In this document: one piece after another, positions 1 through 47,683 of the stretch | How the letters are laid out: every line of letters starts with the position of its first letter | Numbering within the stretch: position 1 is the first letter of the stretch | NCBI GenBank assembly: GCA_964187785.1 | Contig: OZ076409.1 | Span: 62,808,001-62,872,000, forward strand | Length of the DNA: 64,000 bases | From: Amphiscolops sp. MND2022 | Lineage: Eukaryota | Direction of reading: 5' to 3' | Notes under the pieces: generated by a model | Databases searched by the model: none | What the model saw: the letters and a program-made list of their open reading frames with translations, nothing else | Told to the model about the DNA's origin: nothing | Translations under genes and position numbers: made by a program

Positions 1-1
1 A

Positions 2-160
2 GAGGTCCTGTTGATGGCCTATTCTACTCCTCAATGGATTGAATTTACGCTTCTGCTCAATTCGCCGCACTTCGTGGTTCCCCGCTCTCACGGAATACGA
101 GGAATCATCGCAATCTACAAACTCCGCCGTATTTTACGCACGTGCTACGAAGGACTTTAA
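2..160 (+). CDS. 3' end of an ORF entering from the left edge (unknown product; possibly an accessory ORF of the retroelement)
   Basis: Frame 2 is open from base 2 to TAA at 158-160: EVLLMAYSTPQWIEFTLLLNSPHFVVPRSHGIRGIIAIYKLRRILRTCYEGL*. No recognisable motif. Confidence 0.3.
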   Translation, partial: EVLLMAYSTPQWIEFTLLLNSPHFVVPRSHGIRGIIAIYKLRRILRTCYEGL

Positions 161-610
161 AACACAACAATTCGAAGTGCTTATTCTTACATATCAGTAA
201 CATGCTCTCTCTTATCATATTTTAATTAAGTCTGGTACTGCATGCGATTTTCTCTCTTCTCTCAACAGCGTTCTCGTTAGTTCAATTTTACCAAACAACA
301 AAACTACTTTGTTTCACTCGTTTTTATGCTGAAATCGTCTTTGACTATTCGCATTCTACCTAAGTTTTTTACTGTGCTCTTTTCTACTTTTTGAGAAAAA
401 AAAACAAAAAAAACAAAAAACTAAACACTTAAAACAAATTAAACGAGCAGCAAAATAACTCAAATTAACTTATGAGAAGTAACGTCTTTGGTTTTAGTTT
501 GGGCCATTAACCATCTGAGTAACTGCCTTGGACGGTTTTTCTAGCATTAAGTTTGGCAAATTTTCTAGCTGTCGTGCTCGTTATCTCTCTAATTTTCACA
601 CTGACGGGCT

Positions 611-919
611 TTACTGTTCTTGAGCATTGCGGAGTCTCCGGTAACATTTATATCCAAAAAATGCACAGCCAAAGAGTATCAGGGGTAACACGACTGTCAA
701 CCAGGCCAACTGGTCATTGTTCGAACTTTTAACTTTTTGCTTCTCCACTGGTTTTATTTCACATATCACAGGGACAGTAGCACTCCATATAACCTTTCCA
801 CTGGTTGTCACAAATTTTGTTCCATTTGTGCAGCACCAAAACTTTTTGCCGCGCCACTGGTGCTCTTCACACGAAAAACAAACCATTATGTAAATGGCAA
901 TCACAACGCACGTTTTCAT
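611..919 (-). CDS. Small predicted type I membrane glycoprotein (102 aa), antisense to env
   Basis: N-terminal signal-like segment MKTCVVIAIYIMVCFS; Cys-containing ectodomain with NGT sequon; TM LAWLTVVLPLILFGCAFFGY; basic stop-transfer KCYRRLR. An acceptor-like TTTTCAG lies just upstream of the ATG on the minus strand. Confidence 0.55.
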   Translation of the reverse strand: MKTCVVIAIYIMVCFSCEEHQWRGKKFWCCTNGTKFVTTSGKVIWSATVPVICEIKPVEKQKVKSSNNDQLAWLTVVLPLILFGCAFFGYKCYRRLRNAQEQ

Positions 920-1251
920 TTTTCAGCTGAAAATACTAGGTTTTCCTTGCAACTTTGTTCTACACACAAAAAAAACCGGTGTTCCGTTGACACACCATGA
1001 CTTTTCATTCATTTTTCGTTGACATTTTCTCTACAACGCCCCTAATAAGACCTGCATCGGTCAATATTCACATAACACTCTGTTGACATTCTTTCAAATG
1101 ACCGACAAACAAACATTTTTCTCAATAGATCGCGAAAAGTCAATAATTTTCTTTGGTGACTGAACTCTGTCAAATTCTTCCGTGGGTCGATTGATAAATG
1201 CCGACAGGCGTACACAAACAAAAACTGACAAACATTTGACATTCTAAAACA

Positions 1252-1273
1252 ATTTTGCCATCTCTATCTTCAG
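1252..1273 (+). promoter_or_regulatory. Candidate splice acceptor for a subgenomic env mRNA
   Basis: Pyrimidine tract plus CAG (ttttgccatctctatcttcag) ending at 1273, 35 nt before the env ATG. Confidence 0.4.
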
Positions 1274-1308
1274 GCTCATTTTCTGGTTTGAACCATAACT
1301 GAGCAATC

Positions 1309-3663
1309 ATGCTGTTCTTTCTTGCCTACCTTGCTTTCACTCCTGCTTCCGTTTCTAGTCAATGGTCATCTAACATTGAAGCCTCTAATAACCCTAATGA
1401 TCTTCTAGAAAAAGGGATACTATTTAACGAGCGCAATAAAATCTTGCTTACAGAAAAATTTATCAGTGTGGAATTTCTTGTTCCTTTTCCCACTTATGAA
1501 TTTTCCTTGAAACCGGATATCGAACAACTGCTTCACCGCCTTTCGCAAATGTGGGACTTGCCCTCTATTTTTTGTCCCCTGAACTTCTCTAGTCACTTTT
1601 TATCAAATTCTTCTGGATTCAACGTCAATTGGATGCTCTTTCAAATCAATCATGAGATACACGAATCGGAAACCGACCTAAACACTATCCGGAATGAAAC
1701 CTCAATGTTTTTACGACCACCTTCTGAACAACAACCGCGTAAACGACGAGGCGCTGGTGTAGGCCTCGCTGCCCTGGCAGCTGTTGGACTTTTTGGGGGT
1801 GGTATCGCTATGGGCAGTTCCGACTCTTGTGGTCTTCAAGGAATTTTTGGGGGCTGTCACGATCAAGCCCGAGCCAATGCAGCCAACATACGGAGCCTTT
1901 CAGATTACCAAGATGTTCTGACCCAATTTGTCACAGAATTTCAACTGAACACTGACGAAAAATTCTTCTTAGTGAAAAACGAACTCGCCGCTCTTAATGC
2001 GATACAAGCTGAAATGTCAGAAACTCAAAACCGCAATTGGGCCATCATCCAAGAACAATTTGAAGTATTCGAAAATAACTTTCATATTTTACGCGACTGT
2101 AATCAAATGTTATTCTCTAACCAACAGTTGAATTTCAATTTTGACACACTATCTTCGCTTCTCAGTATGGTTCATGCTAGCATCAAAGCTTTTCGCTCAG
2201 CTTTATATGCTTTTCGCATGAACATTCTTAACTCTATTCCTGTTATTTTGCGAGGTCATCTACCAATGTCGCTTATTCCGATGGAATCACTCCTCGTGAT
2301 CTTGGAACGAGTAGCGATTGAACAAAGCACGGCAACAGATCGCTTATCCTTAGCAATTCCGATGACTGACCTCCTTTCATACTATGATTCTCGTTTGCTC
2401 GCTGATGCCGTTACAGTACCAGAAGGAATCTTGATGACCCTTAGTATACCGTTGGCTTCTCGACAAACTGTTTTCACACTCTTTGAGGCTAAAATAATTC
2501 CGATGCCTTACCCCGATGACCCTCAATTGGCTCTCAAGTGGGATATTGAGGCACCGTACTTAGCCATTTCAGAAGACCAAATGGAATCTTCTGTCCTCTC
2601 CGAAGCACAATTTGAACAATGCCTCGGCTCTTCCAAATATCGAATTTGTGCAGAAACTTTTCCTACTGAAATGGGTCATTCTTCATGTATTGCGACGCTC
2701 TTTTTTGACTCCTCTGTTGATGCACTTTCAGTTTGTGATACTTCCTTAGTTTCTTTACCATCTACTGAACAAGCCACTAACCTAGGTTTTGGTATATGGC
2801 TGATAACATCTGCCAATGATGATTTTATATTCCGAGAATCTCATGCAACAGCTGCTTCATCGAAAACACAATCATTTGCAGGCTGTCGTATCTGTATTAT
2901 CACCCTTGAATGTGGCATGCAAATCATGACAAAACACATTAAAATCAGGTCCGACTTATCAAGTTGCTCCCATATACCCGCAATAAAATTGCGAGTTTCA
3001 TTGCCAAACCCTCTAGCATCCCTAATCATGGAAGTTCCCCCTTTAGAGGATTTACCTTTATATGACTCGAAAGCAGAAGCAGGAGTGAAGCTTTTGAAAC
3101 AAGTACGTAAAGAACTCGTACATAGCCCAAGAGTTCGTGAAGTCAACCGATTAGTGGACATAGCCCGTCCCCTAGCGAGTGATATGAAACTTTTGAAACC
3201 CTCGCTCACCCGTGAATTTAATCAATATGTCCCCTTTAAAGTCTCTTTCACTCTGACTATTGTTGTTTTTATCGTTTCGACACTATTGCATTTACTATTC
3301 ATGTACATCTATCACAAGTATCATCTCGCTGATAGACTGTTTCCCAAAAAACTGATCAAAAACAAATTCAATGTCAAACCAAGTCTTGATGTTCCAGATG
3401 AACATAAAGAGGCCTTGCCTGACCTTCAGAAAAGTCTGGGACACCGCTTCAGTTTTCGCGTACCTTCCAAAAATCAAACGATTCATTTGCAAAAACCATC
3501 AACCTCTTTCATGGCTGATTCAGTCATAGGTAATTTCACTGATGGAAATACACAACTCAGCAGTAGCATGATTGATAATGTGCGCAGCCAGCTTACTGGC
3601 GGCAAACCTCTTGTCGCTCCTAATCAAATCCCCCCCGAACGTGAGCTTTCATCCAATTATTGA
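1309..3663 (+). CDS. env: Envelope class I fusion glycoprotein (baculovirus F / errantivirus Env-like), 784 aa, intronless and intact
   Basis: Signal peptide; furin site RKRR (aa 144-147, nt 1738-1749) directly followed by a Gly/Ala hydrophobic fusion peptide GAGVGLAALAAVGLFGGGIAMG; heptad-repeat region; F-like motifs GILFNERNKILL, GHLPMSLIP, SIPL..FTLF..IPMP, YLAIS..C, SCIATLF; Cys-rich ectodomain; TM VSFTLTIVVFIVSTLLHLLFMYIY at about aa 645-668; ~115-aa cytoplasmic tail. Confidence 0.85.
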   Translation: MLFFLAYLAFTPASVSSQWSSNIEASNNPNDLLEKGILFNERNKILLTEKFISVEFLVPFPTYEFSLKPDIEQLLHRLSQMWDLPSIFCPLNFSSHFLSNSSGFNVNWMLFQINHEIHESETDLNTIRNETSMFLRPPSEQQPRKRRGAGVGLAALAAVGLFGGGIAMGSSDSCGLQGIFGGCHDQARANAANIRSLSDYQDVLTQFVTEFQLNTDEKFFLVKNELAALNAIQAEMSETQNRNWAIIQEQFEVFENNFHILRDCNQMLFSNQQLNFNFDTLSSLLSMVHASIKAFRSALYAFRMNILNSIPVILRGHLPMSLIPMESLLVILERVAIEQSTATDRLSLAIPMTDLLSYYDSRLLADAVTVPEGILMTLSIPLASRQTVFTLFEAKIIPMPYPDDPQLALKWDIEAPYLAISEDQMESSVLSEAQFEQCLGSSKYRICAETFPTEMGHSSCIATLFFDSSVDALSVCDTSLVSLPSTEQATNLGFGIWLITSANDDFIFRESHATAASSKTQSFAGCRICIITLECGMQIMTKHIKIRSDLSSCSHIPAIKLRVSLPNPLASLIMEVPPLEDLPLYDSKAEAGVKLLKQVRKELVHSPRVREVNRLVDIARPLASDMKLLKPSLTREFNQYVPFKVSFTLTIVVFIVSTLLHLLFMYIYHKYHLADRLFPKKLIKNKFNVKPSLDVPDEHKEALPDLQKSLGHRFSFRVPSKNQTIHLQKPSTSFMADSVIGNFTDGNTQLSSSMIDNVRSQLTGGKPLVAPNQIPPERELSSNY

Positions 3664-3990
3664 TTGACTTCACGAACTGAATTTATGAAATCTATCATCT
3701 CATAAAACACTTTGCTTTTATATTTCTCTTGCAGTATATGTAAATTTATATAGCAGTAATCTGGCTAATAAACACCAAAGGATTCAAAATAATATCACCG
3801 AAGACAAACAACAACTGGATTCTTCACTCTGGACAACTTTGGATCTTGTGCTGCCCCTCTTTTCATCCTATTTTTATTTTGGATTCAATGCAAAACATTG
3901 GCATACTCAACTTTGGATTCTGTATTTCATACGACCTGACTCTTTCTTCAGCCGAATGATGGTTTCTTTTGGAGGCCGGAAAAGCTCGAT

Positions 3991-3999
3991 GGGAGGAAG
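3991..3999 (+). promoter_or_regulatory. Polypurine tract of LTR retroelement
   Basis: GGGAGGAAG immediately before TGTCATGTG at 4000, about 330 nt downstream of the env stop. Confidence 0.6.
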
Positions 4000-4362
4000 T
4001 GTCATGTGTTCCATGATGATCTTCTTGACCGAAAACAGAATATCAAAATTGAGAAGGAATATCTTGAATGCCTACCAATGACCTTTTATTTATATAAATA
4101 TAAACATACAAGTTGAAACTATTTGACTTTGACATTTAAAACTATTTGACATTTATTGAATACTTCACCAACTGAGAAAAGTAATTTTATAATCAGAAGA
4201 ACGAATAATACAGATAAAGAACAGTTTAGTTTTCCTAACCAAAAAGTGGATTGCGTCCCAAGCATCTTAGACTACCGCTCGACATCTTCTGAGGAATCGT
4301 CTTGAGAGAAGTGACAAAACCAAGACTCTGAAAATAAGAGTTATGACTCCTGGCCTGTAAGA
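4000..4362 (+). mobile_element. Putative 3' LTR of the env-bearing retroelement
   Basis: Starts with TG right after the PPT; TATA-like TATATAAATATAAA at 4091-4104; probable end at ...GGCCTGTAAGA (TGTAACA-like), after which decayed pol sequence begins. The right boundary is uncertain. Confidence 0.5.
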
Positions 4363-4369
4363 TCTGTAA

Positions 4370-5300
4370 TTCATTTTGGCTACATGATCCAAATTTTTCA
4401 GCACATTTTGTGTGGACAGAAAAAAGGTTAACGAATTCACCAGGGCTTGTTTACCCCCATTTACACGGAAAAAGAAGTTACAATCACAAAGTGGTGGATC
4501 TAGGTAAGCGGGTTATGTCCGGTGAGAGACACTCATTTGTAACTTATCAAAGACGCTGTCTCAGTCCCAGCAGAGATGTTCTAACATTGGGTGTGAGATA
4601 ATAGCCGTTGTCTTTGTGGTAAAACGTTCAAAACAGGTTTTACGTGGCTCCAAATTCCTGCTCGAATCATCGTTCTCCGGATAATGATAAATGCATGAGT
4701 GTTATGCTCATTTTGCAGATCTCGGCTTTCTGTCGAATAGTTGAAAAATGATAGTTAATGCGATCAATTAGCAAATAATCAAGGACGATTGCTAAGCATG
4801 TACGCAAGCGAAAAATTTTTTCTCTAAAAATTATTGAATAAGGACCGCGCGTACTGAAACCGGGATTTGGTGTAGGGAGAGATAGAATTTTTTGCCCTTA
4901 GTACACGGAGGGCGCAAGTGGTTCAAGAAAATATCAGGTGACCTCATTGTCTAGACTGGACTGCTTAATAATGGAATCTGACCATACATTCCACTTCGAA
5001 TGCGAAGCATCGTCGAGTGAGCTCGTGAGACTCACTCCGGTGTCTATGCAACTAAGAACATAATGAATCTAATGTCTTGGTGACTTGGAGCCGGAAAAGA
5101 CGTTGACAAGCTTGTAATCGCCTGTTGTGAATGTGCAAAAACCGACCATGGACCGAAAAATCTGCGGATACTTGACCAACCATTGAAGAGATCGCACATG
5201 GATTGTTCTTATATCCAAGAGGTAGGTAATATCCTCATCATAGTTGATGCCGGTTCTGCTTGAATAGAAGCATTTGTTTGCGGTGATCTTGCGACTCCAT
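4370..5300 (+). pseudogene. Decayed Ty3/Gypsy pol fragment (RT/RNase H remnant to integrase)
   Basis: Around 5020-5290 it translates to ...DVDKLVIACCECAK...QPLKRSHMDCSYIQEVGNILIIVDAGSA*IEAF, matching the integrase HHCC zinc finger and the start of the core (P..R.H.D...LI.VD..S.W.EA). Contains stops and frameshifts. Confidence 0.65.
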
Positions 5301-6030
5301 GCTTTCATCAATTATTCCATTCAAGACCTGAAAATATAAACATCCTGCAAAGTTTATCATACAGGATTGTAATAATATGGCATGTCTGACTCGGAAAATT
5401 CGGATGGATACTAGCAAGCACTCCTCAAATGCCCTATCTCCTAGTTCTGATGTTTGCCAGTGGCTGATACTTTTGTTTTAGCGGCACTTAGATCGCCTGC
5501 CGATTTCACTTTGCCTTTCTAGAGGAGGCATGTCTGCCCTTGTAGTCATCTGCTACATCATACATCTCAATTAGAACAGCACGTGTGAGGAAGCCGAACT
5601 CGAGATTTGATGATTACGTGTGCTGTGCGGTTTCATGGAAGGGATATGAAGTATACGCTGGGCTGTGTTTGTCATAATAATTTTGTATGTTGTTTCATTT
5701 CAGATCATGCGTCGATGTCCCTTTAATTACAATGATGCAAAAATTCTAATGATGCAAAAAGTTTCTATAAAACTGCGTTGGCATACCATTTGTCAACAAG
5801 TAAGCCCCTCCGGTTTTGCCTCTAGTTTAAACAACCTTAGTGTTAGTTGGTTTCTCGCTTCAGTTTTCAATCAGTGCCATCAGTCCGAAAAGTTGGGTCG
5901 ATCTGGTGACGTTTTTTGGGTGTGTTGTAATTGGTTTCTTAACATTCGTCACGTCTAAAGTTTTTTGTTTCTTTTCAGGCTCTTTTTAGTGCAAGATTTT
6001 TTTTATCAAGACATTTTGACGGTTATCACA

Positions 6031-7586
6031 TTTTTTTAGTCGGCGCTTCATGAAATCAAACGCGACTATTATAGTGACTCTTTTTTAGGAGTCGGAAAAA
6101 ATTTTCGACTACTTATGCAATCGTGCTGTTTTTTTTTTGTTTTTTTTTCTCCCGACCTTTTCATGAAAATTTCAATTTCTCAAAAACTGTCCATACGATT
6201 TTCACGAAATTTTGCACAGTCATTCTACACCCAAAGGGGCCCCTGCGTGTGCAAAGGCATCAAAATCGTATGGCTGGGATGTGAGAAACATAGCCAAAAA
6301 TGGCCAAAAAACAGCCATTTTTCGACTTTTTTCGATTTTCTCAAAAACTGTCCATACGATTCGAACAAAATTTTCTACAGTTATTCTACACCATATTAGA
6401 GTCCTATATGTGCAATGGCATCAAAATCGTATGGCTGGGATGTGAGAAACATAGCCAAAATTAGCCCAAAAACGGCCAAAAAACAGCCATTTTTCGACTT
6501 TTTCGATTTTTTCAAAAACTGTCCATACGATTCGAACGAAATTTTCTACAGTTATTCTACAGCATATTAGAGTCCTATATGTGCAATGGCATCAAAATCG
6601 TATGGCTGGGATGTGAGAAACATAGCCAAAATTAGCCCAAAAACGGCCAAAAAACAGCCATTTTTCGATTTTTTTTCGATTTTCTCAAAAACTGTCCATA
6701 CGATTCGAACGAAATTTTCTACAGTCATTCTACACCATATTATGGTCCTTTATGTGCAATTTCATTAAATTCGTATGGCTGGGATGTGAGAAACATAGCC
6801 AAATTTAGCCCAAAAATGGCCAAAAAAACAGTCATTTTCCGATTTTCTTACAAACTGTTCATACGATTCGAACGAAAGCGAGTCAGAAGGAAAAAGACTT
6901 AAGCCGACTCCTTTACCGCATATGCGGCTCTGGTTTTCTATCCACACGAACTGACCAAAATAGTTCTTAAAAGTTCTACGAAATATTGCACCAAATTGCA
7001 CCATTTGGCCTAGCGAACTGAACCAAAAAAGTTTTTCCTGTTTCTCCGCGTAACATACCATACCGGGCGAGACCAAAGGGTCCCCCTTTCAATTTTTTTC
7101 GACATTGCGAGACTTTTTTTCGGATTTTTTCCCCAAAGGGTCCCTTCATTTTTTTGGTGTTTTGCGTCAGAATGGATGTTGGAAAATCCCAAAGAGTCCC
7201 CCTTTCAATTTTCCGGCATTGTGAGACTTTTTTCTGAATTTTTTTTTCTCTCCAAAGGGTCCCCCCTTTAATTTCTTTGATATTTTACAACAGATTGGGT
7301 GTTTAAAAATCCCAAAGGGTCCCCCCTTTCAGTTTTTCGGCATTGTGAGACTTTTTTTGTCGAAAATTTGTTTTTTCTCCAAAGGGTCCCCCTTCAACTG
7401 CGACAAAAATGTTGACAATTTCGGAAGTGTCCCCCTTTTAGCGCGCCAGGGGCTCGCGCTAGCGGGCCCCGGTGCGCCACTCGGTCCATTTTTTGAAGTA
7501 TGTAATTTCAAAAAAATTTTCGAAAAAGTCTTTTTGCTGTTTTTGAACCTTGGATATGGCGCCGACTTGGGCCGGTCCCTGCTTGT
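6031..7586 (+). mobile_element. Non-autonomous Helentron/DINE-1-like element (copy 1) with internal tandem array
   Basis: T-run then AGTCGGCGC (6038-6046); its inverse GCGCCGACT at 7559-7567 followed by a degenerate GC hairpin and TTGT. Shares GGGTCCCCC(C)TTTCA...CGGCATTGTGAGAC subrepeats with the copies at 9860, 54372 and 59851. Confidence 0.6.
6178..6875 (+). repeat. Tandem repeat, ~160-172-bp unit, about 4 copies
   Basis: CAAAAACTGTCCATACGATT...CGTATGGCTGGGATGTGAGAAACATAGCCAAA recurs near 6180, 6340, 6512, 6684 and 6850. Confidence 0.9.
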
Positions 7587-7913: not shown

Positions 7914-10900
7914 GCCGGAAAAAGTCAAGCAAATGCTTCTCCTGATAATGGTTTCATGCAAGAAGAGATGCCGAAGGCGCTGGAGCCTCTGGAGTTATCC
8001 TCTGAGTTGCTAGATCAGTCCAGCAAGTTGATCCAAAAAGATGGCAAATCTTCTTCTGGGCGCAGTATTTTAATAGACGCTTGCAGAAGTTAGTTACATC
8101 TGGATTATAGTTGGCTGCTGTTGAGTTTTATAGTATTTTAATGCTGTTAGTTTCAGGATAGCCCACTATGAAGGTTACTACCCTCTATCTGCATGCATTT
8201 TTCTTTCCAATTTTTCTGATCTTTTAGGCCGGTAATAATTTAGTTCATTGGTTTTTTCTGTTGCGGAAAGCTCGTATTGATATTAGAATCGTTTATCCCT
8301 TCAAAGCAGTGAATTGATCCGCTAATAGCGTTTGCGGGTCGCTTCGTGGAAACTATGCTCAAATTTAGCTTAAAAAGCAATTTCTAGAATTTCAATGAAA
8401 TGAATTTTCTGTGATGACTTTTTTCATTAGCGGTCAGCGGATGCTTAGAAAAAAGCAGAATAAGCGAAAATCGCTCATCCAAAAAGCGGGTTAGCTTTTA
8501 TCGAATTTTCATTATCGAGTCAATACACTGCTTCAAAGCGTTGTTGAATGACTTAATCGTAAAGCAGTGTTTTATGTATATATCCAACCTCCAAAGAGTT
8601 AGTTCCGGAATATGTTCCAAGTTGAGTTGAATTCCTAACTGTAATTCTTGTTGATTTAAGCCTCTGAATTGTTCAAAATAATGCCTTAGGTTATTTATTG
8701 AACGCGGAAACTGTTTCTTTTCTGCCTGGGTAACGGCTGTTAAATGTACCCCCATTCTCCCATTCTGTATGCTCAATGCTCAGCTGTTTCGTTTGTTTAA
8801 TGAACGTTATTCCTGCGATTGCTACATTTTACTTTCATGTATCTTGCCAAATGTTGGAATACGCTGAAAGAAAAAATGAATGGGTCATTTTGAATTCTCA
8901 TGTTTCATGCTTGCAGTTTTATTTTAGTGCCCCCGCCCCCGTATCTATTAAAATGCATCAGTTACATGTTTTTTAAAAGCGGATCGATGTAAACCCACAA
9001 AATATGGAAACCGGAAAAGACCATTTTGGGGAGATTTCGAGGATTTATTTTATGACAGTGTTCTTTCGGACTCGCTTCACTTTCAATGAACAGTGCTTTA
9101 AAATGTGTACTTCTGGTTATGTTGAGCGCTTACTAGTTTTGAGTACAAAAAAACACTTGCCATTACTTTTTGTCCGAAGCGGTATCCGAAACTAATTCGT
9201 ACTTCAATACTGTGGTTGCGATAATACATTAGTTGCTACTATTCACAGATATCCTGTTCGGCACTTACAAAGTGTTGATAGTGAATGACGAGAACAATGT
9301 GCGGAGACTGGAGAACAACATCAAGATCCTCATGGACTCCTTCTACTGTGTAGAGGCCGCCAAGTCCCTCCAAGAAGTTGTCGCCTTCCTCAAGGTGAGC
9401 TTCCTTCATTATTTAAAATCACTCGTGAATAGAGCATTGCAGTATTGACACTGTTTGAGAAAACAGTCGCAGTAGAGGCTCTACATGGGCTCTCGTGTTC
9501 GAAAACTCTTTCACTGTTGGTTTGCTAGAATACTAGCTACAGAATTTTGGGAATATCATCTTAATGAGCAACAAGATAGAGTCCGGTTGGATACTAAAGT
9601 TCATTTGTTTAAAGAGGCGAAAGATGTGCTCGTATTTTCTGTATATTTCAAGTCACGGGAGTATGACATGCTCAAAAGCGTCATTTTGCTAGATATAAGA
9701 TAACGTTCTTTCTATGGTTCCGATGCTTACTATCCCTTCTGTCGAAATCAGATGAGACGGATCTGTCAACCGCGGCAGATAGAGTCCTCTGCAGATGAAA
9801 TTTTTGTGTGAGCCACTGAAAACCTTTCAGTGTTAAAACCCACTGAAAGTTACTAGTACGTTTTTAAGGAAAAATGCCCGACTATAGCAGTGACCTTTTT
9901 TTTCTTCAGACTACAATCCTCACACTGAAAGGTCCACTTTTCTTACAATTCTTACAATCTTTAAATTTTACAATTCTTACTTAGCAAATTTAAAATACTG
10001 GCGCCAAAGCTTGCGAAGTAGTATTTTTACATCATCTAAGAAACTCAAAGGGACCAAAGGGTACTGCCTTAGAGTATTTTCGGCGCTGTGAGACTTTTTT
10101 TTCAAAAAAAAATTTCCCCAAGGGGTCCCCCCTTCAATTTTTTTGGAGTTTTCCGACAGAACGGATGTTGAAAAATCCCAAAGGGTCCCCCCTTTCAGTT
10201 TTTTCGGCATTGTGAGACTTTTTTTCAAAAATTTTTTTTTCACCAAAAGTGCCCCTCCTTCATTTTTTTTGATTTGCGACAGAATGGATGAAAAATCTCA
10301 AAGTGTCCCCTCTGGTGCGCCAATTCGGTTCAACTTTGGGGTTTTTCCGGTATCGTAGAAGAGAATACTTTGACACTTTGAAGTCCTTTTGCTGTTTTTG
10401 AGCCTTAGATATGGCGCCGACTTGGGCCGTTCCCGGCTTGTTTAAATGACTATAAGTCAGTATAAAGATGTATATTTCGTCTAAGTTCTGATTTTATGCC
10501 GGCTAAGAAAGCGCTTGTAACAGGAGTATTGAATGGCTATGTAATTGAAACACGAAAGGTGTACCCTTTTTTTCGGTAGATTCTGACTTTCGTTGAGAAT
10601 GAAAGTGGTAAACAAGACGCCCGCTGAGCAGCGGGATATTTTCCGCCCCGAACTGTTCTACAACTACATGAGTTTGAGGCTCAAGAATAAGCCAATGCAC
10701 TATAAAAACGCCAATAAGTTCGAAGAAAAGAAAACTTTGATTCATCGTACCCCATTTTAAAGGAAACCCCTAATTTATTATTTGAGAGAGCTGGTCACTT
10801 TTCTTTTTTTCGGCACTATGCGACTTACCGAGAAAAAGAAAGTTTTCAATAAATTTTTTGAAATTTTTTTAAAAATTTTCAAAATTTTTAGTTTTTGAGG

Positions 10901-13900
10901 TTTTCTGTAAAGGAAACAAGTTTCCTGAGTCTTGAGGGTGACCTCTTTGTTACTTTTGATCATGTGCAACTGATGAGATTTCTTTTTGATTGTGGGAAAT
11001 AGCTCATTTAAGTTTTTTTCGACTTTGTACTTTCATTTGGTCAAAGTGTACCCCTTGCTTTCATAGCACATTTCGGCTTGAGAAAAGCAGTTTCGCGAGC
11101 TGAAACTCGTTTCGCCATAAATGGTAAAAGAGAAAATGGTAAAAGCTTGAAATTAGGTCTGTTTCAAATTTAGGAAAGTTGAGCAATCCCGGTTTGTTAT
11201 ATTATTGTACATTGTTTCACCAGAAGTGTCAAAAATTGCAAATAGTTTTGACAAGTTTAGGGTCAATTTGAGGAACTTTTCGAACATGAATCTACAGATG
11301 TCTCTTCAGAAATAAGCCTACTGGATACCGAGTTTAGCTGTCGTTGAATGTTTACACCATTCTAACCCACGAGTAGCTCGAAACATCTTTCTTAGGAAGG
11401 TGTACTCCATTTCTAGTGAATTTGCTTGGAGGTTTTTGAATGACAAATATTGGACAAATGAGGTTGAAATTTACGTTTTCAAGTAAAGTATTTGAGAGTT
11501 GTGCGAGTAAACTTGTCTGATATCTTTACGGAACACTACCGGTAACTAGACGTTTCAATACTGAGCCTATGATATTTCTCATTGAAGTAAATTTTAGGAA
11601 AGTGTCCAATATTGGGACTGTGTTGTCGAAAATAAAGAAAGTTCGGAAACTTTGACATCTTTGCTGTAAACTCGATGAAATTCATGCCTCTTTTTCCCAC
11701 AATTGCGTTTTGAATACCTTTTTGTTTAAACGCTGAGGTCATTAGAATTTCTCTTTCTTAAAAACTTTCGTGACTTGAACAAAAAATGGGATTAGTTTGT
11801 CAAACAACGTGCTTTTTGTTGTTTCATGGATTTTTGGGTGTTTTTGAGACCAATTCTAACAAAACATGCAGTTATCTCTTGAAAATTGCCAACTGGAGAT
11901 ATCCGGATGAGTTAGTGTTGAGTGTTTAAAACCATTTTATGCAAGGAAGTAGTTCAAAAAATCAACAAACAACTGCCTGAAAATGTTGAAAAACTTGAAT
12001 ATTTTCAGTTTTTCCAATAATTGTGTCATTTTGAGGAAACTTCCGACCATAAATTAGGCATTCTTTAAAACCGTGTTCCGGACCTAGTTTTATCAACGCG
12101 AGCGTTTTGAACTTTTTAGTTTACCAAAATTTTCCAATCTCAAAAAAAAATTCACTGAAAATGTGAGAAATCGACAAAACTTTTCAAGCTTTCGACTTTT
12201 TACGGTCACTTCTCAGCCATTTTCCAACCGAAATTTGCAAATATTCACCTGAAAGCCTAATTGAATAAGAGTTCAGTCTTTGTTGAACGTTTGCTGACAT
12301 TCTGACACCAAAATGATTCAAAAAGTACACAAGTTGCACAAAAACAAAGTTGAAATTTTTCGACTCCTTTGGAGTCATTCTGAAATGTTGGTGAAGCAAA
12401 ACACTGTAATGTTCTCTTCAAGAAAACATTGCATAGCTCGTTTTTTCGTTGTTGAGTGGATTGCGGAACTTAGAACAAAATCTTTCGAAAAATCTACAGA
12501 AAATGCATCAAAAACGACAAAAACTTCGAAATTTTGACATCTCAGGTCAATTTGAGGCCCTTTTCTTTTACGAATTGAACTTATCTCGTAACGAAAGCTC
12601 ACCGAAACAACAAGTTTGCCCACGCCTTAAGCGTTTAAACACTTTAGTCCAAGGAGTCTATCGATATTTTGACAAAAAGTGAAGAAAAAAAAGGAATTTG
12701 ATAATTTTTCGAGACTTTGTTTTTTCGATGTCGATTCCGGACAATTTCCTATCGAAAAACTGCATTTATCTCTTTTCTAAGCATATTGGACAACACTTAT
12801 TTTCCTTGTTGACCCTTTTCAACGTTCCAATTGACGAAGTCTGTCAAAAATTTGGAAAAAATGCATGAAATCTTTGAAAATTGGAAACTTTTGGGATTTT
12901 TGTCATTTACGGTGTCAATTTGAGACATTTTCAATCAGAACATTGCAATTATCTCTTAATTAAAGATTAAAGACAGACTACGGGACGTACCAATTTTTTC
13001 ATTGTTGACCCTTTAAAACATTCCAATCCACGAAGTCTGTGAAACTTTAACAAAAAATGCATAAAACTTTACTTTGAAAATTGGAAAATTTTGTGTTTTT
13101 TGTCAATTTCGGTGTCAATTTGAGACATTTTTATTTAGAAAAATGCAATAAACTCTTAAAAAGGGGTACTGGACAACCAACGTTTTCCTTGTTGACCCGT
13201 TAACACATTCCAATCCACGAAGTCTCCAAAATTTGACGAAAAATGCGTAGAAACTTTGAAAAATGGAAAATTTAGGGACTTTTGTCATTTTCGGTGTCAA
13301 GTTGAGACTTTTTTCAAATAAAAAACAGCCATTATCTCTTCTGAAACGCCTACTGGACAGCAAACTTGTACCATGTTGATCGTTTCCAACATTCTAGTCC
13401 ACAAATTCTATCGATAATTTGACAAAAATTGCTTAAAAACGTTAAAAATCTGGAAATTTTTGGTTTTCTTTGTCATTTTTGGGTATTTTTCTTTCCAAAA
13501 AACCGCATTTATCTCTTCATAAACAACTACTGGACAACGAGTTCTTGTCTTTGTGAATTTTTTCAACATTTTAATCCACGACATTTATCGGAAACTTGAC
13601 AAAATTGCATTAAAGCCTAAAAAAATGCAAATTTTCGCTTTTTGGGGTCATTTTTGAGTTATTTTGGGGTCATTCTGGGGTCCTTGGGGTCAACTAAAAA
13701 AAGTCCGGAAATCTCCACAAATACAAATCGCACGAAGCTAAATTTATGTGAGCTGAATTCTATGGGTGAAACCCTTTAGCTTTGATATAAATAAATTCTT
13801 GGCAAATTTTGTAAAAAAAACCCGTTCGATTTAAATATTTTCCTTTCCCATATGAAATATGGGCGGAAAATAATGAGCTGTTGTTTCAGGGAGTTCACGA

Positions 13901-25900: not shown

Positions 25901-28900
25901 TTTGTCATCTTCGTCGAACTTTCTGGTTGAGCATTGAAAATTAGCTAAATTTTGTGAGCCATAGTTCTAATTTTTCGAGAATGCATAAATATCGTTTGAA
26001 AGTGAAATGAAAGTTTTCTAGAGCAATCAAAAAGACCATAAACGTTATGAGTAAGACACTATAAATCACGCTACAAAACGATGTTGCATAATTGCTAGCG
26101 TTTGATTTGCAATCATAATAGAAGTTGAATGTAATGTCTTCAGGTGGTCTGCTTTTTGTGTGGGAGTTTCCTTTCGACTTTTTTTCATGCATTTGAAAAC
26201 AATATCTATCTTTCATTACCCCTTTACTGTTACAATTCTGAAGAAGTTTTAAGAACATTTCGATAGGAACTTCGAAACCGTTTTTAATTCGATAGGTTTC
26301 CTGCATGACAATACTATGTACTGAATAAAAAACGTTTTCAAAAGTGGTACGAAAATGGCAATGGAACTTCAGTATTTCTGACCGTATTTCATTCCATTTT
26401 GTCTCCGTTAGAAATAGAGATACATCTTAGTTGTTTCAGTGCTGCAACTCATAAATAAACTCATGAATCATTCACGATTCTCAGCCATTCATCATTCATC
26501 TTGGTCTCAAGTTTCTTGGTTCTTTCAAGGGACTGACATTTGTGATTGTCTCTATTGCTTTCAGAGGTGAAGAGGGAACGAAGATAGACTTGATAGAGAC
26601 TGCGAAGCTGATTGCGGATGCAGCCATGGTGGTATACAAACTTGCTCACGAAGTGGCCGCCGAGTGCCAAGAGAGGAAAATCAAGAGGGTAACTACTCAT
26701 TTGACTACTGATGCAGCTTTTATGCTAAATTTGTGAAGAGACATTTTGCTTGTTGTGAAGTGCTGTACATGCGCTGGTGGTTTTAATGAACGAGTTTAAT
26801 CACGAAAGAATTACAAGTCTCAAATTTACTTTCAATTAACTTTGTAGAATTGAGCTTTGAAATCTACTTAGCTTTGATTAAGGCAATTCAGAAGAGCTGA
26901 GATCATCAGACTAACCCAAACACTGTATTTCGAATGTACAGTCCTGATTGTATGATGTTTCGTTCATTAAGAATGATTTCTTCGAAAACATCTGCTCCCA
27001 AAATAATGTCTACGGGTTTTAGTTCATGGAAATTTGAATCAGCTAATTTGTAACTTTCTATATTCAATGGGCTGTGATGGCAGGTCACCCGTGAGGGTAT
27101 TAAGCGTTAAAGCTTCAACCCTGACTGCAGTTTTGGCTGTTTTCAAAATGGTTTGCACAACCTCTGATTTGTGGTTTGCTGTATGATCACCAGTTCCTCC
27201 GAGTGAGATGTCTCTAGGCTCTGTGTCGAGTTGCAGTTTCCTTGCCAAATCTTTCGTGATGAAGCTCACTTGAGATCCACTGTCCAGAAGTGCTCGCCAG
27301 AAAACTGTTTCACCATTCGGAACCTTGGCAGGGACCATTGCTGCAGAGAGTAGGATCGATTGTTTCGTTGAGATCTTTTGATGTCCTGAGAATTGTGACT
27401 CCGCAGCATTGTCCACATGCAGGTTTTAGTGATGCTTTTTCTGACAAGTTCGACATGTTGTTTTTGATTGACATTTGACCGCAGTATGACCTGGACGAAG
27501 ACAATTGAAGCACAGCCTCAGTTCTTTGACTTTTTCACGCTTTTCCTGCACCGCCAGAGCCAGAATTTTTGAGCATGAAAAGATGGTGGTTTTTAGCACA
27601 AAAATCACACTTGAATGCTGCTGCTTGGTAGCTTTGGGCTTGGTTGTGAGGTTTTTCTCTTGGTTTTGTCGAAATGGTAGAAGTTCTTTGAGAAGCCTCA
27701 AGTGCTGTAGCTCGTTCCAGAAAATTGAGTAAGGTATCAATCTTCTGCAAGTCCCCATTGCGAACTGAGAGCTGCCATTCTTTTGCTATGTCTGTATCCA
27801 GCTTCTGTGTCAATAGGTGAGTCCACAAGAAATCAGTTTGTCATATCAAGACCTGTAGACGAAAGTGCAATCTGATTCTCACGAAACGTGCCCACCGGTT
27901 GACGGAGTGTTTCAGGTGCATTCATTTTCGTTGGCGTAATCTTGTAGATGTGATCCAGATGAGCTGTCACTATCATCTGTAGATTCTGATATCGTTTTTT
28001 GAGCAAATTCATTGCAATTGTGTAGTTGGCTTCAGCTGCTGGGTGATGTGAAAGTAACTTCGCAGTATTGCCTTTCAGTGCTCCCTTCAAATAGCACAGC
28101 TTCTGTACATCTGGAATTGATTGATTGTTGACTGAGCCATTGAACATGTCGAGGAATGGTGTCCATTCTCTAGAATTGCCTGAGAAAACTGGCAAGTTGA
28201 TTCTTGGCTACCGCAAATTCTCTACTTTGCGTTGAAACAACTGGAGTCGCTTCTGAAGCTATTGGTTGAGGCAATTGAATAACATTGGTTTGCAACCAAA
28301 GTTCTATCCGTCGAATTGTTGATTTTAACTTTGGGTCAATCTCATCTGGTTCGTCTATTTCAACTTCGATTGATTCATCTGCAGTTTCAGAAAGAATCTC
28401 TTGATTCAAATGCAAGAAGATCGAAATCTTTTCTTTGAGACTGTCCAATAGCTCCCTTGCTTGAACTTTGTGTTCGTCAGTCAATTGATCTGGTTGAAGT
28501 TGTGAGATTTCGTTAAACTTGGTTAGTTTCTTAGTTACAACTGCAGCATGAGCCTTGCATGAGGCCAAATTCTTCTTTAAAGTGTTAGACATTTGAACTG
28601 TCTTGCTTTTTAGGCCACCTCAGAAGGTTTTTTTATCACGTCGGGGTCACCAAAATGTAGAATTGAGCCTTGAAATCTACTTAGTTTTGATTAGGGCAAT
28701 TCAGAAGAGCTGAGATCATCGGACTATATTTCGCAGTAATAAAAAAAGTGAAATAGTGAGTATTAATGAATATTTGTGAACAAGTTGAAATTGAAGTCAA
28801 ATATTTTTGCTTGAGACTTTTTAGAGTGACTTTGTATCGATTTAGGCTTCAACATACTTTATGAAGTGGTCAAGCGAGTTCGAACAAGAATAATTGTAAG

Positions 28901-39269: not shown

Positions 39270-42075
39270 TCCCTCTGTCAGATATCATGGATCTTTGTCA
39301 TCAAGTGCCATGTGTATCATCATGTTGGGCAGAGAAGACAGACACCAATGGTCCGCAACGAAAGTAGGCAACCGCGTACCTGCCACTTTCCCAGAAGACG
39401 AGTAACAAAAATAACAACCAACAACCTACTCATACCAGCCACTATCCCAGTCGACCGGTAGAAACATTTTTCAAAAAAGCTGAATAGATATAGAGGTTTA
39501 AAAATACTATATGTAACAAAACTCTTCGAACGCAATCTGTCGCTCTCAGTTCCTAAAACACAGGCCGCATTGCCGATCTGAAGAGCCATTGAATACCGTT
39601 GCTTCAAAAACCTGCCGGCTCGTTGATAGTCGTGCGAACGACAGTGCGTTAACAGAGACGCATGATGAAAATTTCACTGCTCGCGCCTAGAGAACCTTGT
39701 CCTTCCAAGGCCACCGGCTGAAAAATGTATCCATTGTCTATTAATTCGCGATGCGTCTCAATTTTACGCGCTTCAGCGTCGGTGCCGATGTTTGCCGGGT
39801 TGCATAAGGAGACTTGATTCAGGCGATTGGGTGCAAGAGCATCCACAATCGTGACATCCCACACCAGCTGTTTACCAATTTCCCAAGGAATCATTGAAAC
39901 ACCGTCTGGGCGTTTGCCATCAGCTCGGTACAGTCCATGCGGTTCGAGCAATGAAGGCAAGTCGAGAGAAACCAACATCAGCTTTATGAGAGAATTGAGA
40001 GTAGCATCACGCGAGAAGCGACCAGCACTCTTGGTGCAAGAAAGACCGTGTAAACCATCGCGTTCAACTCGTTTACCACAGTGGCACGTAAGCGGAACAC
40101 AGATGTTGGCTTCGAGACGTAAACCAATCGAATACCGATGCTGCTGATCATCGGCCTATGTTCTTGCGAGGAACGACGTTCAACCATTGAGACCTGAGTT
40201 CGCCTTGATGAGCGGTAAAAACTTTCGAACATTTGTCATCCATTCTAGAACTCAAATTTCTAGACAGGTTGTGTCCAATTTATCTGAGTTCCATCGAGAG
40301 GACTTTTCTTTTCATTAGTCAAACTCAACCATTTCTCATGCGCTTTTGTAAAGGAAACATCTCCTAATGTTTCCGACAAAATCGTCGTGAGAAAATCACT
40401 CGCACCAAAAGCTGAGGTCAAGTCAATAAGGCGGGAAGAGCTAATAATGATGCGGATGAAACACCAAGATTACCCATTTCAGCAGGCAGAGCCAGCTGAG
40501 TACTCGAATCATCGTCGAAGTTCACGTTACACACTTTGAAGAGCCTGTCGCGTACGGTTTTGTCAAACTTTTCCGAAAGAAGTGGATGATTAAAACTGGT
40601 TCTCAGAAAGTAAAACAACTTTGGCAGACTGAAGCAATATTTCAACACAAAAAAGCATAATATGCATGTAGTTTTTCAACAAATCCATTACCTTGTTCCA
40701 GTTCTTTAATTTTCTTTTCCAAAATGTCTGCCTGTGATTTCTGGCCGAGTCCTGAACCAAGAATGATAAATTCATGTTTCTTTGGTGGTTTGATCCCGAG
40801 GCAAAGCTTTTAGAAAGATGCTAAAATTGTCGATCGTCGTTTTTCAGTGATGTCAGCAAGAAAAAAATTTGCATTTCGTGGGTTTAACTTTTAGGTCCAG
40901 CGGTTTTTTCCGCTCCAACAATTTCTTTGAGATCTTTCAAAACGGTTTTGTAACCATCACTTAAATTTCCAAAGTCGAGGTACCATAAATTTGTTTTCGA
41001 CTACAAACTGTCAATCAGATCCTGAATGGAATCCGAAAAAAAGCTGGAGATTCAAGATCTCCTTGCTGGGTTCCTTCACAAGAATTGATTACTGAATCAC
41101 CGTAAAAAAACGAAAAATTGGCTGACTGTATGCCGAGTGTGAGCTCTTAAAACTTCAGGGTGTATTTCAAAAGTTTTCTCCAGCATGAATTGTCGGTTTA
41201 TCGGATTGAATGCGTTTTCGAAGTTAATTTTCAAAATTACGTTTTCTTTGGATCGGGGGTTTTCTATCAAATAACGGAAAACATGAGAGGCCAATTCAGC
41301 ACTTCTTTCGGTGCCTTCACCTACTTCTCGACTTCCGTATCTCGCTTGACGTGATTCGAAGACATGGTATCCGACTCATTTTGCGGACAACCGGCGGAAA
41401 GTATTGCCTAAAGTGATAGGACGAAGTCCTCCATCGGTCTTTTTCAGCGCGCGCAATTAGTTTTGCACGAAAGAAGTACGCCCGAAGTTCGAAAGGTACT
41501 TTTCCTTCAAAAATTGTTTTCACAAGATTTGTTAAAGCTCTGAGGTCAGTTCAGTTTGCCCGTTCGACTCGGCAGTCAAATCCTCCGAAACATGGGGCGA
41601 AATGCGTAAACCTGCACTAGAGCCGTTGGGAAAGGACTTGAGAGCATTGTGTACGAGAATCTCTGAGGTTGAAAAACAACCGATATCTGTTGGGTCCGAA
41701 ACTGAGCAAGTTTTCCTCTGCGGATGTTTCAGCTTGAGCACCGCGTAATTGTCGACCGTGAATTGTGCAAACGTGTCGTCGCCTACTGCCCTTCTGATTC
41801 CGGTCTTTACTCTATATTCGTCTAATTCAGTGCAAATAGAACGTAGTTGTCGATTTACCTCGCTTTTCGGCTGCGGTTTTCTGTCGCGTTTCTGTTTTTT
41901 TTTCAATGACACCATCCCGAATACGCTTGTTGATAGTTGCACTGAGTGATAAACTTTGACGTTTACCTCGTCGGTGTGGTGTTTCCAAAAAATAGCTTAG
42001 AGAGGTGAGCATTGAACAACTTAATGCAATATTTGACAAGGTTTCACAAATATCATTACTTTTGGGTATCAAGTT
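39270..42075 (-). mobile_element. Decayed CRE-clade non-LTR retrotransposon (RT + RLE endonuclease)
   Basis: Frameshifted pieces: FPNGSSAG, KINFENAFN (RT), GTQQGD, WYLD, LALPAEMGNLG, then CxC/H-rich region, RPDG..IPW..GKQLVWDVT (PD-D/ExK RLE) and SMALQIGNAACVLGT. The 3' region is also copied at ~42770-43020 (+) and ~51225-51400 (+). Confidence 0.8.
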
Positions 42076-43879
42076 TTCAGCTAATTATTGGTTATGGGTA
42101 AACAGCTGGTGTGGGATGTCATGGTTCTGGTAGCTCTTGCGCACAGTCGTCTGAATCAAGGCTTTTAATGCAACCCGGGAACCACTGCCATCGAAGCTGA
42201 AGCGGGTAAAAATGCGAAGTATTGCGAAGTAATAGACAATAGATACATTTTTCAATCTATTGCAAACCTGTATGATCATTTTGAAAATCAAAAAATGAAT
42301 TGAAATCAAAATTTATAATTATGGCCTAAATTATTGCTGCAAACAAATAATTTTTATGTGACACATCATAAATTGAAGTTGACGGTTTCGACAACATGGT
42401 CAAATTTCACTGTCTGAGTTCGACAGTAAACGTTGATTACGTATCCGCAGCCCGACTGGTTTCGACAGGTCTGTTTATACAGTGATAAAGTATTTCTGAT
42501 AATGGCGGGACTCGCCAAGATATCGTCTGAAAAGAGATATTTAGGGACGTGCGAGAAGTTAGACATTTGCTTTGGTGTTTTTCTGTTCTTTCAATCTACC
42601 AACTTTCTTCCAAACTTCTTGACGCTGAAATTAAAACTTCCTTTAAATATCCATTTCAACCTCAACCTATAATCTGAAATAACATTTAATATAACTTAAC
42701 CTTCTTTTGGAGTCAACTCCACTTTCATCAAATTCAACGAAACGTTCAACTCACAACGTTTGAAATCGATGGCCGTGGAGGTACACGCGTCTCTGTAAAA
42801 TGCTCTTTCGTTCGCAAGACCATCAACGAGCTCACAGTTTTTTAAAACAACGGATTTCGTTGGTTATCAGATTGGCAATGCGGCCTGTGTTCTAGGAACT
42901 GTGAGCGACAGAGGTGCGTTCAAAGAAAATTATTGCAATTAGTTAATTTTTGAAAAAAACCTGTGTGTCATTGCAGCTCCTTGAACAAATGTTTCTATCG
43001 GTCGACTGGGATAATCGGTATGGAACCAAATTGTAGAAAACCAGTTTATAGAATCCAGTTTGTAGAAAAGTGAGGTTCAGTTTGTAGGATTTTTTCTACA
43101 GACTGGACCAGGGTATTATTTTTACGACCAGTTTGTAGAAAAACTGACCAGTTTGTAGAAAAAAAGTTTGTAGAATCGAGTTTGTAAATCATCAATTCAA
43201 GAAAAAAGTTAAGAACAATCATGTAGGAATGATGTAAGTTATAAAACGTGCCTCGCATTTGTCCGCATTTCCTCTAGTGCACGGCGGCTCCTTGGGGCCG
43301 CTTTTGTACCCATCGTAATAAGTGAGGTCAAACAGGAGGTGTGGTATATTTGGATCAAATTTTTGAAATTTTTTTGTGAGCGAAAATCGAGATCGAAACT
43401 TTTGAGATCGAACTGTTTAGTTTTTGCTTCTGCAAAGCGTTTAAATGCGTTTAAAATTTTTTAAGTAGTTCCCCCCGCCTAAGAGCGAGTCATATACGGT
43501 ATATGCACGCTTGCCCTCACTGTCGCAAAGACCAGCTCCCACCACGATCGCTCCGCGATCCTCCGTTCCCGCTAAATCTTTGCTCCTATTCGACCTCACT
43601 TAGAAAGATGGGAACATAAGCGGCCCCAAGGGGCTGCGGGGAACTAGAGGAAATGGGGGCATATCAGACGGCCAAAAACAATGTTATTTGGATCCGCTAG
43701 GTATTTGAAAACATTGATTCGATCTCATTTTCTTTGACCATTTCACTTCGATCTCCGATCTCAAGGACAGATTGTATTTTCGCGCAAATTCATTCAATCC
43801 AAACGCCCACAGCCGAACAGGAGCAAAACCTAGCGGGAACAGAGGAAGCAAGGTAAGGCAGACAACACGACACTGTCAG

Positions 43880-45500
43880 CGTATCGACCGATGCCAATTG
43901 GATGCCAGGCTGGTAAGTTTCTTCAAAAAATTCAACCTGATAGACGAAGAGCAGGAAGGCTTACATTCCAACACGAGCACAGTAAGGTCGTTGTAGAGGT
44001 TGAAAATGGAATGACAAGAATGAGCGGGAAAAAAGGCGCCTTGATATTCATTGACTTCGAGAAGGCTTTCGTTTCCGTATGGAACAATGGACCGCTCAAA
44101 AAACTCTATCAATCGGGACTTAGAGGTAACTTCAAAAGATTGATTGAAAATTTTTTGAAACGCCAATAACTCAGCCTAGAAACTAGTAATCTGAGAATCC
44201 AATACTTTGGAGCCAAAGATGGACTCCCACAAGGTATTGTGTTATCACCAATTCTGTTCTTTTTTTGTTTCCGACATGTTCAAAATCCTCTACTGTACGA
44301 TGTTCAAATTCGCTGACGATGGAAACCTCCGAGTGACAGGAGACACTGGAACTCAAATCTATCTGAATTGTCAATTTATTCTCAAACAACTGGAACGGTT
44401 GTGCAAAAGTTGGTGGATCGCAGTCAATGGTGATAAGACGTCAATATTCAACCTCAACAATGAGAACACGCACACCCCGAAGTTTTTTAGCGAAGCCTGC
44501 AAGGTCACCAAAAAGGCAAAAATCCTGGGTTTGATTGTTGACAACAAACTGATTTTCAACGAACATCTACATTAGGTAGAAGGGAAAATTGCTGAGCAGC
44601 TGAACATGTTTAAAAAGTTTTGTGGCTCTAATAGGTGTGTAAAGTAACCAACGCTCATAATGCTTTACCAAACTCTAGTGCTCCCCCGACTTCTGTGCGC
44701 GGCACTTGTGTGGGCCAGGAAACACGTTCAAGCGTTTAGGCGATTCCAATACACAACGCTCAAACTTAGCATAGGTACAAGTACGAAATTCGACCAGTTG
44801 GCAGCTGAAATACTGTACGGTCTCCCGCCTATGCAATCACAAATTAACATTACCACTCCTAAATTTGGAATTAAGCTTTCGAAATCGCAGGACATTTTTG
44901 GAAACTGTACCGGAAATGTCAATTTCCAAAAATATAAAGTGATAAAAACCTCATTGACGATTTTTATAAAGTCACACGTGCAACAAATTGTTTCACGGTG
45001 TCAACTTGCCATGCGTATCTGAAAAGTAGATGGAATAGAAAACCTAAGAACGCGCTCACGACTATCCCACTGGATTGGTCAATCACACAAATTGAATTGG
45101 AAGGGATTGTCTATCCAAAAACAAAGCAGACACCTCAAATCTACTCCCAACAAGCCCCGTTTGAATTGAAACGTGGAGCTGGCAGAATTTGCGTACAAAA
45201 TTTGGCGAGCGGAGACTCCACTATGCCCTTGTTGAGCAAATACAGAATCAGTCCTGCAATACTCATTCTTAGGCCTCCTGTACGAGCAGTTTCGTGCGCC
45301 CGAACTTGCCACAGGAAATATCTTTTCACTTGGCTGAATCACGAGCGTAAAAAATTTCATCAAAGATTCAGGATGTTTCGAAAGTAGAACAGAAAGGAAA
45401 CGGCACTTTCAAGACAAGTACTTTACTACTGAAGACGCATAATTTTTGAGGCAATGACTAACAGACCTTCAACTTTTACTTCATTTACACAGAACTGATA
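43880..45500 (+). pseudogene. 5'-truncated, decayed LINE reverse transcriptase (Jockey/CR1/I-like)
   Basis: FIDFEKAFVSVW..GPLKKL...GLRG, PQG.VLSP, FADDG, KILGLIVDNKLIFNEH and LYQTLVLPRL motifs; multiple stops and frameshifts. Confidence 0.8.
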
Positions 45501-47440: not shown

Positions 47441-47683
47441 TTTTGTTCCCATCTTAATAAGTGAGGTCAAACAAGAGGTGTGGTATATTTGGATCAATTT
47501 TTTGTGTGAGCGAAAATCGAGATCGAAAGTTTTGAGATCGAACTGTTTAGTTTTTGCTAAGTTTTTGCTCCTGCAAAGCGTTTAAATGCGTTTAAAAGTT
47601 TTTAGGTAGTTCCCCCTCCTAATAGCGAGTCATGTACGGTGTATGCACGCTTGCCCTCACCGTCGCAAAGACCAGCTCCCACC

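Follow-up and report, generated by a model that had tools for sequence, protein, structure and literature searches.

The left end of the 64-kb stretch of DNA presented above (hereafter the window, always meaning the whole stretch) quite probably carries the 3' portion of a mobile long terminal repeat (LTR) retrotransposon that has recently been amplified in an animal genome, likely of the Ty3/gypsy "ancient errantivirus" type, in which an envelope gene (env, the open reading frame (ORF) under study, at 1309-3663 on the plus strand) with a predicted F-type fold is accompanied by a conserved antisense gene for a predicted small membrane protein (the small ORF, or sORF). We have very little doubt that env belongs to a mobile LTR element and, from comparison with described elements, we regard Ty3/gypsy rather than BEL/Pao as its probable home. 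That the antisense ORF is a real, selected gene is a claim we make with considerable confidence from the pattern of its conservation, and its product may be an accessory protein that has so far gone undescribed. Env alone is one more family of a kind described in 2026 (Chary & Hayashi 2026, PMC13524379); the antisense gene is an added feature that we did not find in print.

The envelope gene, its modelled fold and the 3' end of the element

Env is the only ORF of more than 200 aa in the window. We note that it forms an ORF of its own, opening at an ATG that has a stop codon just upstream, and that it is uninterrupted over its whole length, as the initial annotation of this DNA had claimed; the same annotation described the remaining transposable-element ORFs as broken, and the BEL/Pao, hAT and reverse transcriptase (RT) remnants are indeed all broken. 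The protein features that it had listed were likewise recovered, namely a furin-type RKRR site with a predicted hydrophobic fusion peptide directly after it, a transmembrane segment, a cysteine-rich ectodomain (12 Cys between residues 89 and 553) and heptad repeats, which appear in the structural model as long helices at residues 183-211, 219-260 and 264-314. The putative signal peptide (residues 1-17) was judged by eye only, and sequons lie at residues 92, 100 and 129. In an alignment of env with 68 of its 103 relatives (69 rows), 13 rows do not span the cleavage site and were set aside; 51 of the remaining 56 retain the R-x-K/R-R motif. Each of the 12 cysteines is kept in 83-100% of rows.

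An AlphaFold model of env (predicted local distance difference test, pLDDT, 73; predicted template-modelling score, pTM, 0.60) combines long heptad helices with a beta-rich head, and its matches to known structures, though modest in score, agree at the top. Against the PDB all 40 Foldseek rows listed are paramyxovirus or pneumovirus F proteins (E 2e-6 at best, with 179 matches at E<=0.001), and the top nine VIA rows are F proteins as well (Z 6.4-8.0 over 305-366 residues, root-mean-square deviation 5.8-16.9). In BFVD the best-scoring models, at E 1e-20 to 1e-14, belong to chu-like virus glycoproteins, to an abalone herpesvirus ORF and to baculovirus F. The baculovirus F family PF12259 matches six of the 69 aligned rows at E<=0.1 and four of 16 rescanned env relatives, three of these above the curated cut-off, and the top three clusters in the Atlas (score 0.95-0.96) carry PF12259 on 12-23% of their members. 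By its modelled fold env is an F-type class I fusogen. The initial annotation had made this identification and had proposed a structural comparison with baculovirus F and paramyxovirus F; both are matched by the model, and the identification is supported by these matches together with PF12259 in the relatives.

Baculovirus F, paramyxovirus and pneumovirus F and the chu-like glycoproteins thus share with env a predicted fold and an order of motifs; unlike them, env misses the Pfam model, sits in a chromosomal repeat and is only 10-15% identical in sequence to the viral structural matches. Weak HA2 and F0 matches near the fusion peptide, returned by a profile search of env at E 0.014 or worse, were not used. 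As a separate observation, the third-best structural match in BFVD, A0A145VUZ2, is an uncharacterised 801-aa abalone herpesvirus protein (E 1.3e-19, 15% identity), and the modelled likeness suggests an F-type protein in a herpesvirus.

A second lineage is offered by a 3.8-kb locus (L001), the only one obtained from 53 pattern matches in a metagenome scan, whose env is decayed and 53% identical to that of the window. At both loci env is a distinct ORF and the last one ahead of a polypurine tract and a TG...CA LTR unit, the CA end in the window being a likely one. The window tract, GATGGGAGGAAG, is the sole TG-followed run among the five runs of at least nine purines in 3664-5000, and it fails a stricter test of 12 purines in 13; in L001, AAAGATGGGTAG stands before TG at 3360-3371. 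The initial annotation had noticed the polypurine tract, the TG at 4000 and a TATA-like box, all of which we retain, and had run the LTR on to 4362, an end that we rejected, as it has neither CA nor an inverted end. An LTR end at 4316 is more likely because it closes a 5-bp inverted end and because L001 carries an LTR-like unit of comparable length, 331 bp with 8-bp inverted ends (TGTAACAT...ATGTTACA); taken alone, the 5-bp inverted end in the window is weak, with a probability of about 25% by chance. An AATAAA lies at 3767, between the env stop and the polypurine tract; the AATAAA of L001 falls within the LTR unit of that locus.

Copies, mobility and the carrier lineage

Counted at the protein level, env falls in a 90% cluster of 21 members, with a sister cluster of 18. 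Among the 30 members listed (15 per cluster), 17 are at least 770 aa long and 10 are shorter than 700 aa, and nearly all are on contigs that differ in length. Twelve proteins of 784-785 aa (97-99% alike) are separated by 1-36 residue differences, with just 1-4 among six of them; the 103 relatives, at 43-98% identity, include subfamilies at 87%, 66% and 43-55%, each with many members, and 1554 representatives score E<=0.001 against env. The DNA 1.2 kb upstream travels with these copies: the frame spanning 2-157 closes a 95-aa called ORF, P0182, whose cluster has five members on contigs with the size of the window's contig (671,501) or of other env-copy contigs (566,031; 843,934; 110,125; 141,082). 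That frame, which has no match in Pfam, was not adopted as pol, only the 95-aa ORF having been matched among longer proteins. The many near-identical and truncated copies point to a mobile family and not a domesticated gene, and the copy count that the initial annotation had suggested bears out a multicopy, recently amplified element.

That annotation had also entertained a co-opted fusogen, which the copy number disfavours. A domesticated host gene of the syncytin or iris kind, lying beside an LTR remnant, would account for env being the sole long intact ORF amid broken transposable elements and for its strong purifying pattern against L001 (237, 283 and 131 of 373 first, second and third codon positions identical). 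We nonetheless consider it extremely improbable: the copies are counted in dozens, near-identical, truncated and diverged, on many contigs, upstream element DNA accompanies them, the polypurine tract and TG are retained, and the pattern of a domesticated env (single copy, syntenic, without retroelement flanks) was not found.

Alternatively, the window might hold an env-only element that is non-autonomous, or a fragment of a non-retroviral virus (chu-like or malacoherpes-like) that became endogenous, with other machinery responsible for its movement. The best predicted-structure matches, to chu-like glycoproteins and the abalone herpesvirus ORF, lend themselves to this idea, as does the fact that no pol was recognised within 1.3 kb upstream of env in the window or within 0.8 kb in L001. 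Against these stand the polypurine tract and TG...CA unit found in two lineages, the low identity to viruses already mentioned, and the viral_contigs collection, which yielded no relatives when searched with A1, P0001 and the sORF alignment. We judge this alternative very improbable. A search of genome_contigs for loci likewise gave none.

The reading of env as part of a mobile F-type LTR element has to be weighed against several observations. The env model falls below pLDDT 50 at residues 141-195 and 204-227, the Foldseek TM-scores in the PDB are low (0.17-0.28 by query length), the VIA Z for env never exceeds 8, and env as a query matched neither Pfam nor the PDB sequences. No sequence similarity links the LTR candidates of the window and of L001 (score 33, with shuffles reaching 40), and the window candidate contains no AATAAA. 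Gag, pol, the primer-binding site, the 5' LTR and a target-site duplication are not in view, the window showing the 3' end of the element only, and the copy count is possibly inflated by alleles from several individuals or assemblies.

Most invertebrate phyla, cnidarians, ctenophores, tunicates and annelids among them, are reported to have Ty3/gypsy elements with an F-type env (Chary & Hayashi 2026, PMC13524379), and the comparison drawn in the initial annotation, with elements that carry an F-related env as the last ORF before the 3' LTR, therefore concerns a known kind, reported across invertebrates in that source. The "ancient errantiviruses" described there resemble the element of the window in having env as a separate ORF before the 3' LTR, with a furin site, a fusion peptide (predicted here), a transmembrane segment and an F-like head and stalk, and in their many near-identical copies; their signal peptide has a putative counterpart in env. 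Unlike them, the window has more than 1.1 kb without a long ORF in front of env, holding the antisense gene, and pol lies outside the view. The main text of PMC13524379 makes no mention of antisense, accessory or small ORFs or of an sORF; Xenacoelomorpha are absent from the groups it surveys, and seven supplement files held neither acoel names nor one motif looked for in them. Literature listings, with most subscription papers outside their coverage, gave no description of env elements in acoels. If the host is an acoel, F-type errantiviruses would be extended to a deep-branching bilaterian phylum outside the PMC13524379 survey. Among other relatives, vertebrate lokiretroviruses have an F-like Env (PMC9040795), and Troyka has CG termini (PMC12440569), unlike the TG...CA found here.

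The same architecture might instead be carried by a BEL/Pao element (Belpaoviridae) or another LTR lineage, which we think unlikely. The env of roo is in frame with pol, whereas env in the window begins from its own ATG after a stop and was not found in frame with gag-pol; no cluster member listed exceeds 870 aa, though longer fusions were not searched for. The BEL/Pao alternative can point to the F-like protein of roo, itself a BEL/Pao element (PMC13524379), to TG...CA ends and a polypurine tract that are common to superfamilies, and to a broken BEL/Pao gag-protease in the same window, but invertebrate Ty3/gypsy elements widely carry an F-type env (PMC13524379). A quick env tree of 48 rows, built without named references, was uninformative on superfamily.

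The antisense small ORF and the spacer

The initial annotation noticed env and the LTR and overlooked the antisense ORF. Its predicted product begins MKTCVV and has a signal peptide (about residues 1-16), a cysteine-bearing ectodomain (C17, C29, C30 and C53) with a sequon (N32-G-T34), a transmembrane segment (about 71-90) and a basic tail with four K/R. The window has 63 ORFs of 70-200 aa that start with ATG, and of these the sORF alone passes a test for a layout of signal peptide, transmembrane segment, basic patch and sequon, a test that was set after the sORF had been seen.

The case for selection comes from L001, where a homologue lies at 152-421 on the minus strand (BLASTP E 3e-8, 21 of 69 residues identical). 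The Smith-Waterman score of the pair is 87; the remaining 35 frame pairs of the two upstream regions score no higher than 42, the top score among 330 further window frames is 41, and none of 5000 shuffles reaches 87. All four cysteines are invariant between the two, as are N32 and T34, and seven of the 21 identical residues use different codons. First, second and third codon positions are identical at 36, 34 and 22 of 66 sites, a count biased toward the frame used for aligning. By blastn, the sORF region of the window has no DNA match in L001. A second copy, P0361, is 99% identical, and its frame extends 27 codons further upstream.

It is conceivable that the element is an ordinary env retrotransposon and that the antisense ORF is a by-product, either a host fragment picked up by the element or a DNA or RNA element that is conserved and happens to read as a frame. 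Such a reading may invoke the comparison of two lineages, the record left by gene callers of the sORF in one other copy only, and the N-termini, which differ between the window and L001. It is opposed by the match of the antisense frame pair alone, by the shuffles, by third codon positions varying most, by the lack of a blastn DNA match in the region, by the invariant cysteines and sequon, by the kept spacing described below and by a layout seen in one of 63 ORFs, and we regard it as improbable. Some of our results nevertheless tell against a selected membrane gene, beyond the frame bias just noted: the comparison spans two lineages only, P0361 is the only other protein found, the decayed L001 copy has no clear signal peptide, its frame being shorter at the start by about 15 residues, and the structural model of the sORF product is unusable (pLDDT 41.5). 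A search of the sORF against families gave no match, and the Atlas leads (US6, PRIMA1 and ORF7a, 0.82-0.85) were rejected, being below the lead threshold and from families that disagree.

The spacer between the two divergent ATGs is 389 nt in the window and 397 nt in L001, though the DNA does not align. TTTTCAG with an ATG within 10 nt, a motif chosen post hoc, has five occurrences in the window and one in L001, and in both it precedes the first ATG of the sORF. The sequence TTGACATT lies at 1019, 1083 and 1236 in the spacer and at 4129 and 4146 in the LTR; six of its 10 window copies fall within 1-4400, and one copy lies in the L001 spacer. Possibly, judging from this distribution, it is a transcription-factor site common to spacer and LTR. 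The Tor4b element of Oikopleura, which has an env promoter in the space after pol, would be a precedent for such a spacer (PMC4402516). Tor3b and Tor4b also have a furin-cleaved membrane Env, a likeness drawn from descriptions and not from sequence, and differ in that no antisense gene is described for them in the passages of that source consulted.

Antisense genes are known from the 3' part of other LTR elements, such as hbz of HTLV-1 and asp of HIV-1. Plant Retand elements likewise have a conserved antisense coding region in their 3' part, which, unlike the sORF, carries TRP28, a likely DNA-binding domain (PMC11963269). The sORF differs from all three in that its predicted product is a membrane glycoprotein and that it lies head-to-head with env in an element of an animal. 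It can also be compared with the sORF2/FAST-like proteins of MDG1-group retrotransposons (10.1101/2025.03.14.642691), which are similarly short and LTR-encoded, with a single transmembrane segment and a basic patch after it. Unlike sORF2, the sORF is antisense, lies beside an intact env, has a predicted signal peptide, a cysteine ectodomain and an N-glycan site, and lacks MGxxxS/T. The sORF2 elements are insect and env-less, and two of six Drosophila sORF2 proteins have no myristoylation motif (10.1101/2025.03.14.642691); of the sORF2/FAST traits, the sORF thus shows the single transmembrane segment and basic patch and shows neither an N-terminal myristoylation motif nor an env-less element. 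Literature listings, with most subscription papers outside their coverage, gave no description of an antisense membrane gene in animal env-bearing retrotransposons.

Taken together, a life cycle may be proposed for the probable Ty3/gypsy-type element with its two genes. Gag-pol and a 5' LTR would lie to the left of the window, gag-pol being carried on genomic RNA from the 5' LTR, and env would be expressed from an RNA spliced at the acceptor at 1273 or, alternatively, from an internal promoter as in Tor3b and Tor4b. Env would enter the endoplasmic reticulum, be glycosylated, trimerise and be cut by furin after R147, and might allow particles to enter other cells by fusion, passing most likely from soma to germline. 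The antisense gene would be transcribed separately, either from the spacer, with its TTGACATT cluster, or from the 3' LTR with splicing. We tentatively suggest that its product sits in the producer-cell membrane beside Env, where it might tune Env trafficking or fusion, or might block re-entry or a host restriction factor; if so, the sORF would be a candidate for a partner of Env, for a block to superinfection or for an antagonist of a restriction factor. An equally tentative proposal is that the element represents a "complex" lineage of invertebrate endogenous retroviruses, possibly of acoels, with a two-way cassette that encodes an F-type Env one way and a small accessory glycoprotein the other; it would then be an invertebrate counterpart of retroviruses with antisense or accessory genes. 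If the antisense gene is truly conserved, invertebrate env retrotransposons can carry retrovirus-like accessory genes for which standard gag-pol-env pipelines make no search, and the sORF would give a small, testable handle on control of element entry or on encounters with host defence.

Feature coordinates and surroundings

The coordinates of the element and of its neighbours are collected in Table 1. A Pfam scan covered 141 of the 179 other window frames of at least 72 aa and revealed the vinculin-family and NPC1 exons and the broken BEL/Pao, hAT and RT remnants.

Table 1. Positions of the features of the element and its surroundings in the 64-kb window.
Feature	Position	Strand	Remarks
Internal element region, off the left edge	1..610	+	no pol domain recognised
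Antisense sORF, 102 aa	611..919	-	head-to-head with env; predicted type I membrane glycoprotein
Candidate sORF splice acceptor TTTTCAG	920..933	-	just before the sORF ATG, inside palindrome TTTTCAGCTGAAAA
Spacer between divergent ATGs	920..1308	.	389 nt; candidate two-way internal promoter (presumed function)
Candidate env splice acceptor	AG 1272-1273	+	within the spacer
env, F-type (class I)	1309..3663	+	intact, uninterrupted ORF, 784 aa
Furin-type site RKRR	1738-1749	+	env residues 144-147
Predicted fusion peptide	1750-1821	+	hydrophobic stretch, residues 148-171, directly after RKRR
env transmembrane segment	3223..3318	+	residues 639-670; then cytoplasmic tail of ~114 aa
Polypurine tract candidate GATGGGAGGAAG	3988..3999	+	directly before TG
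Likely 3' LTR, TGTCA...TGACA, 317 bp	4000..4316	+	TATATAA at 4091; repeated AAACTATTTGAC
Two adjacent frames like decayed coding sequence	5072-5477	-	just past the LTR; no Pfam match
Vinculin-family gene exons	7845-33807	+	spread over ~26 kb
Broken BEL/Pao-type gag (DUF1759) and protease	27042-28619	-	between vinculin exons, antisense to the vinculin gene
Frame like the end of a non-LTR element	39652-40155	-	by eye; no Pfam match
RT fragment, weak	44195-44572	+	
hAT-like transposase remnant	47842-48348	+	DUF659
NPC1-like gene exons	52781-63705	+	NPC1_N and NPC1_MLD matches

The best-matched vinculin exon reaches E 5e-14 against solved vinculin structures, and with such host genes in the window an animal host is most likely. 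Short tandem or dispersed repeat families occupy 6135-6877, 7066-7400, 10047-10442, 12800-13665, 43000-51150, 54574-54850 and 60041-60490, and there are long inverted repeat arms, for example at 46999-47434. These repeats may resemble those of acoels; the dispersed ones at 6.1-7.6 kb, taken with the GC content, are the ground for proposing an acoel host, which is no more than a lead. The GC content of the window is about 39%, and that of the acoel Praesagittifera naikaiensis is 39.1% (PMC6451197).

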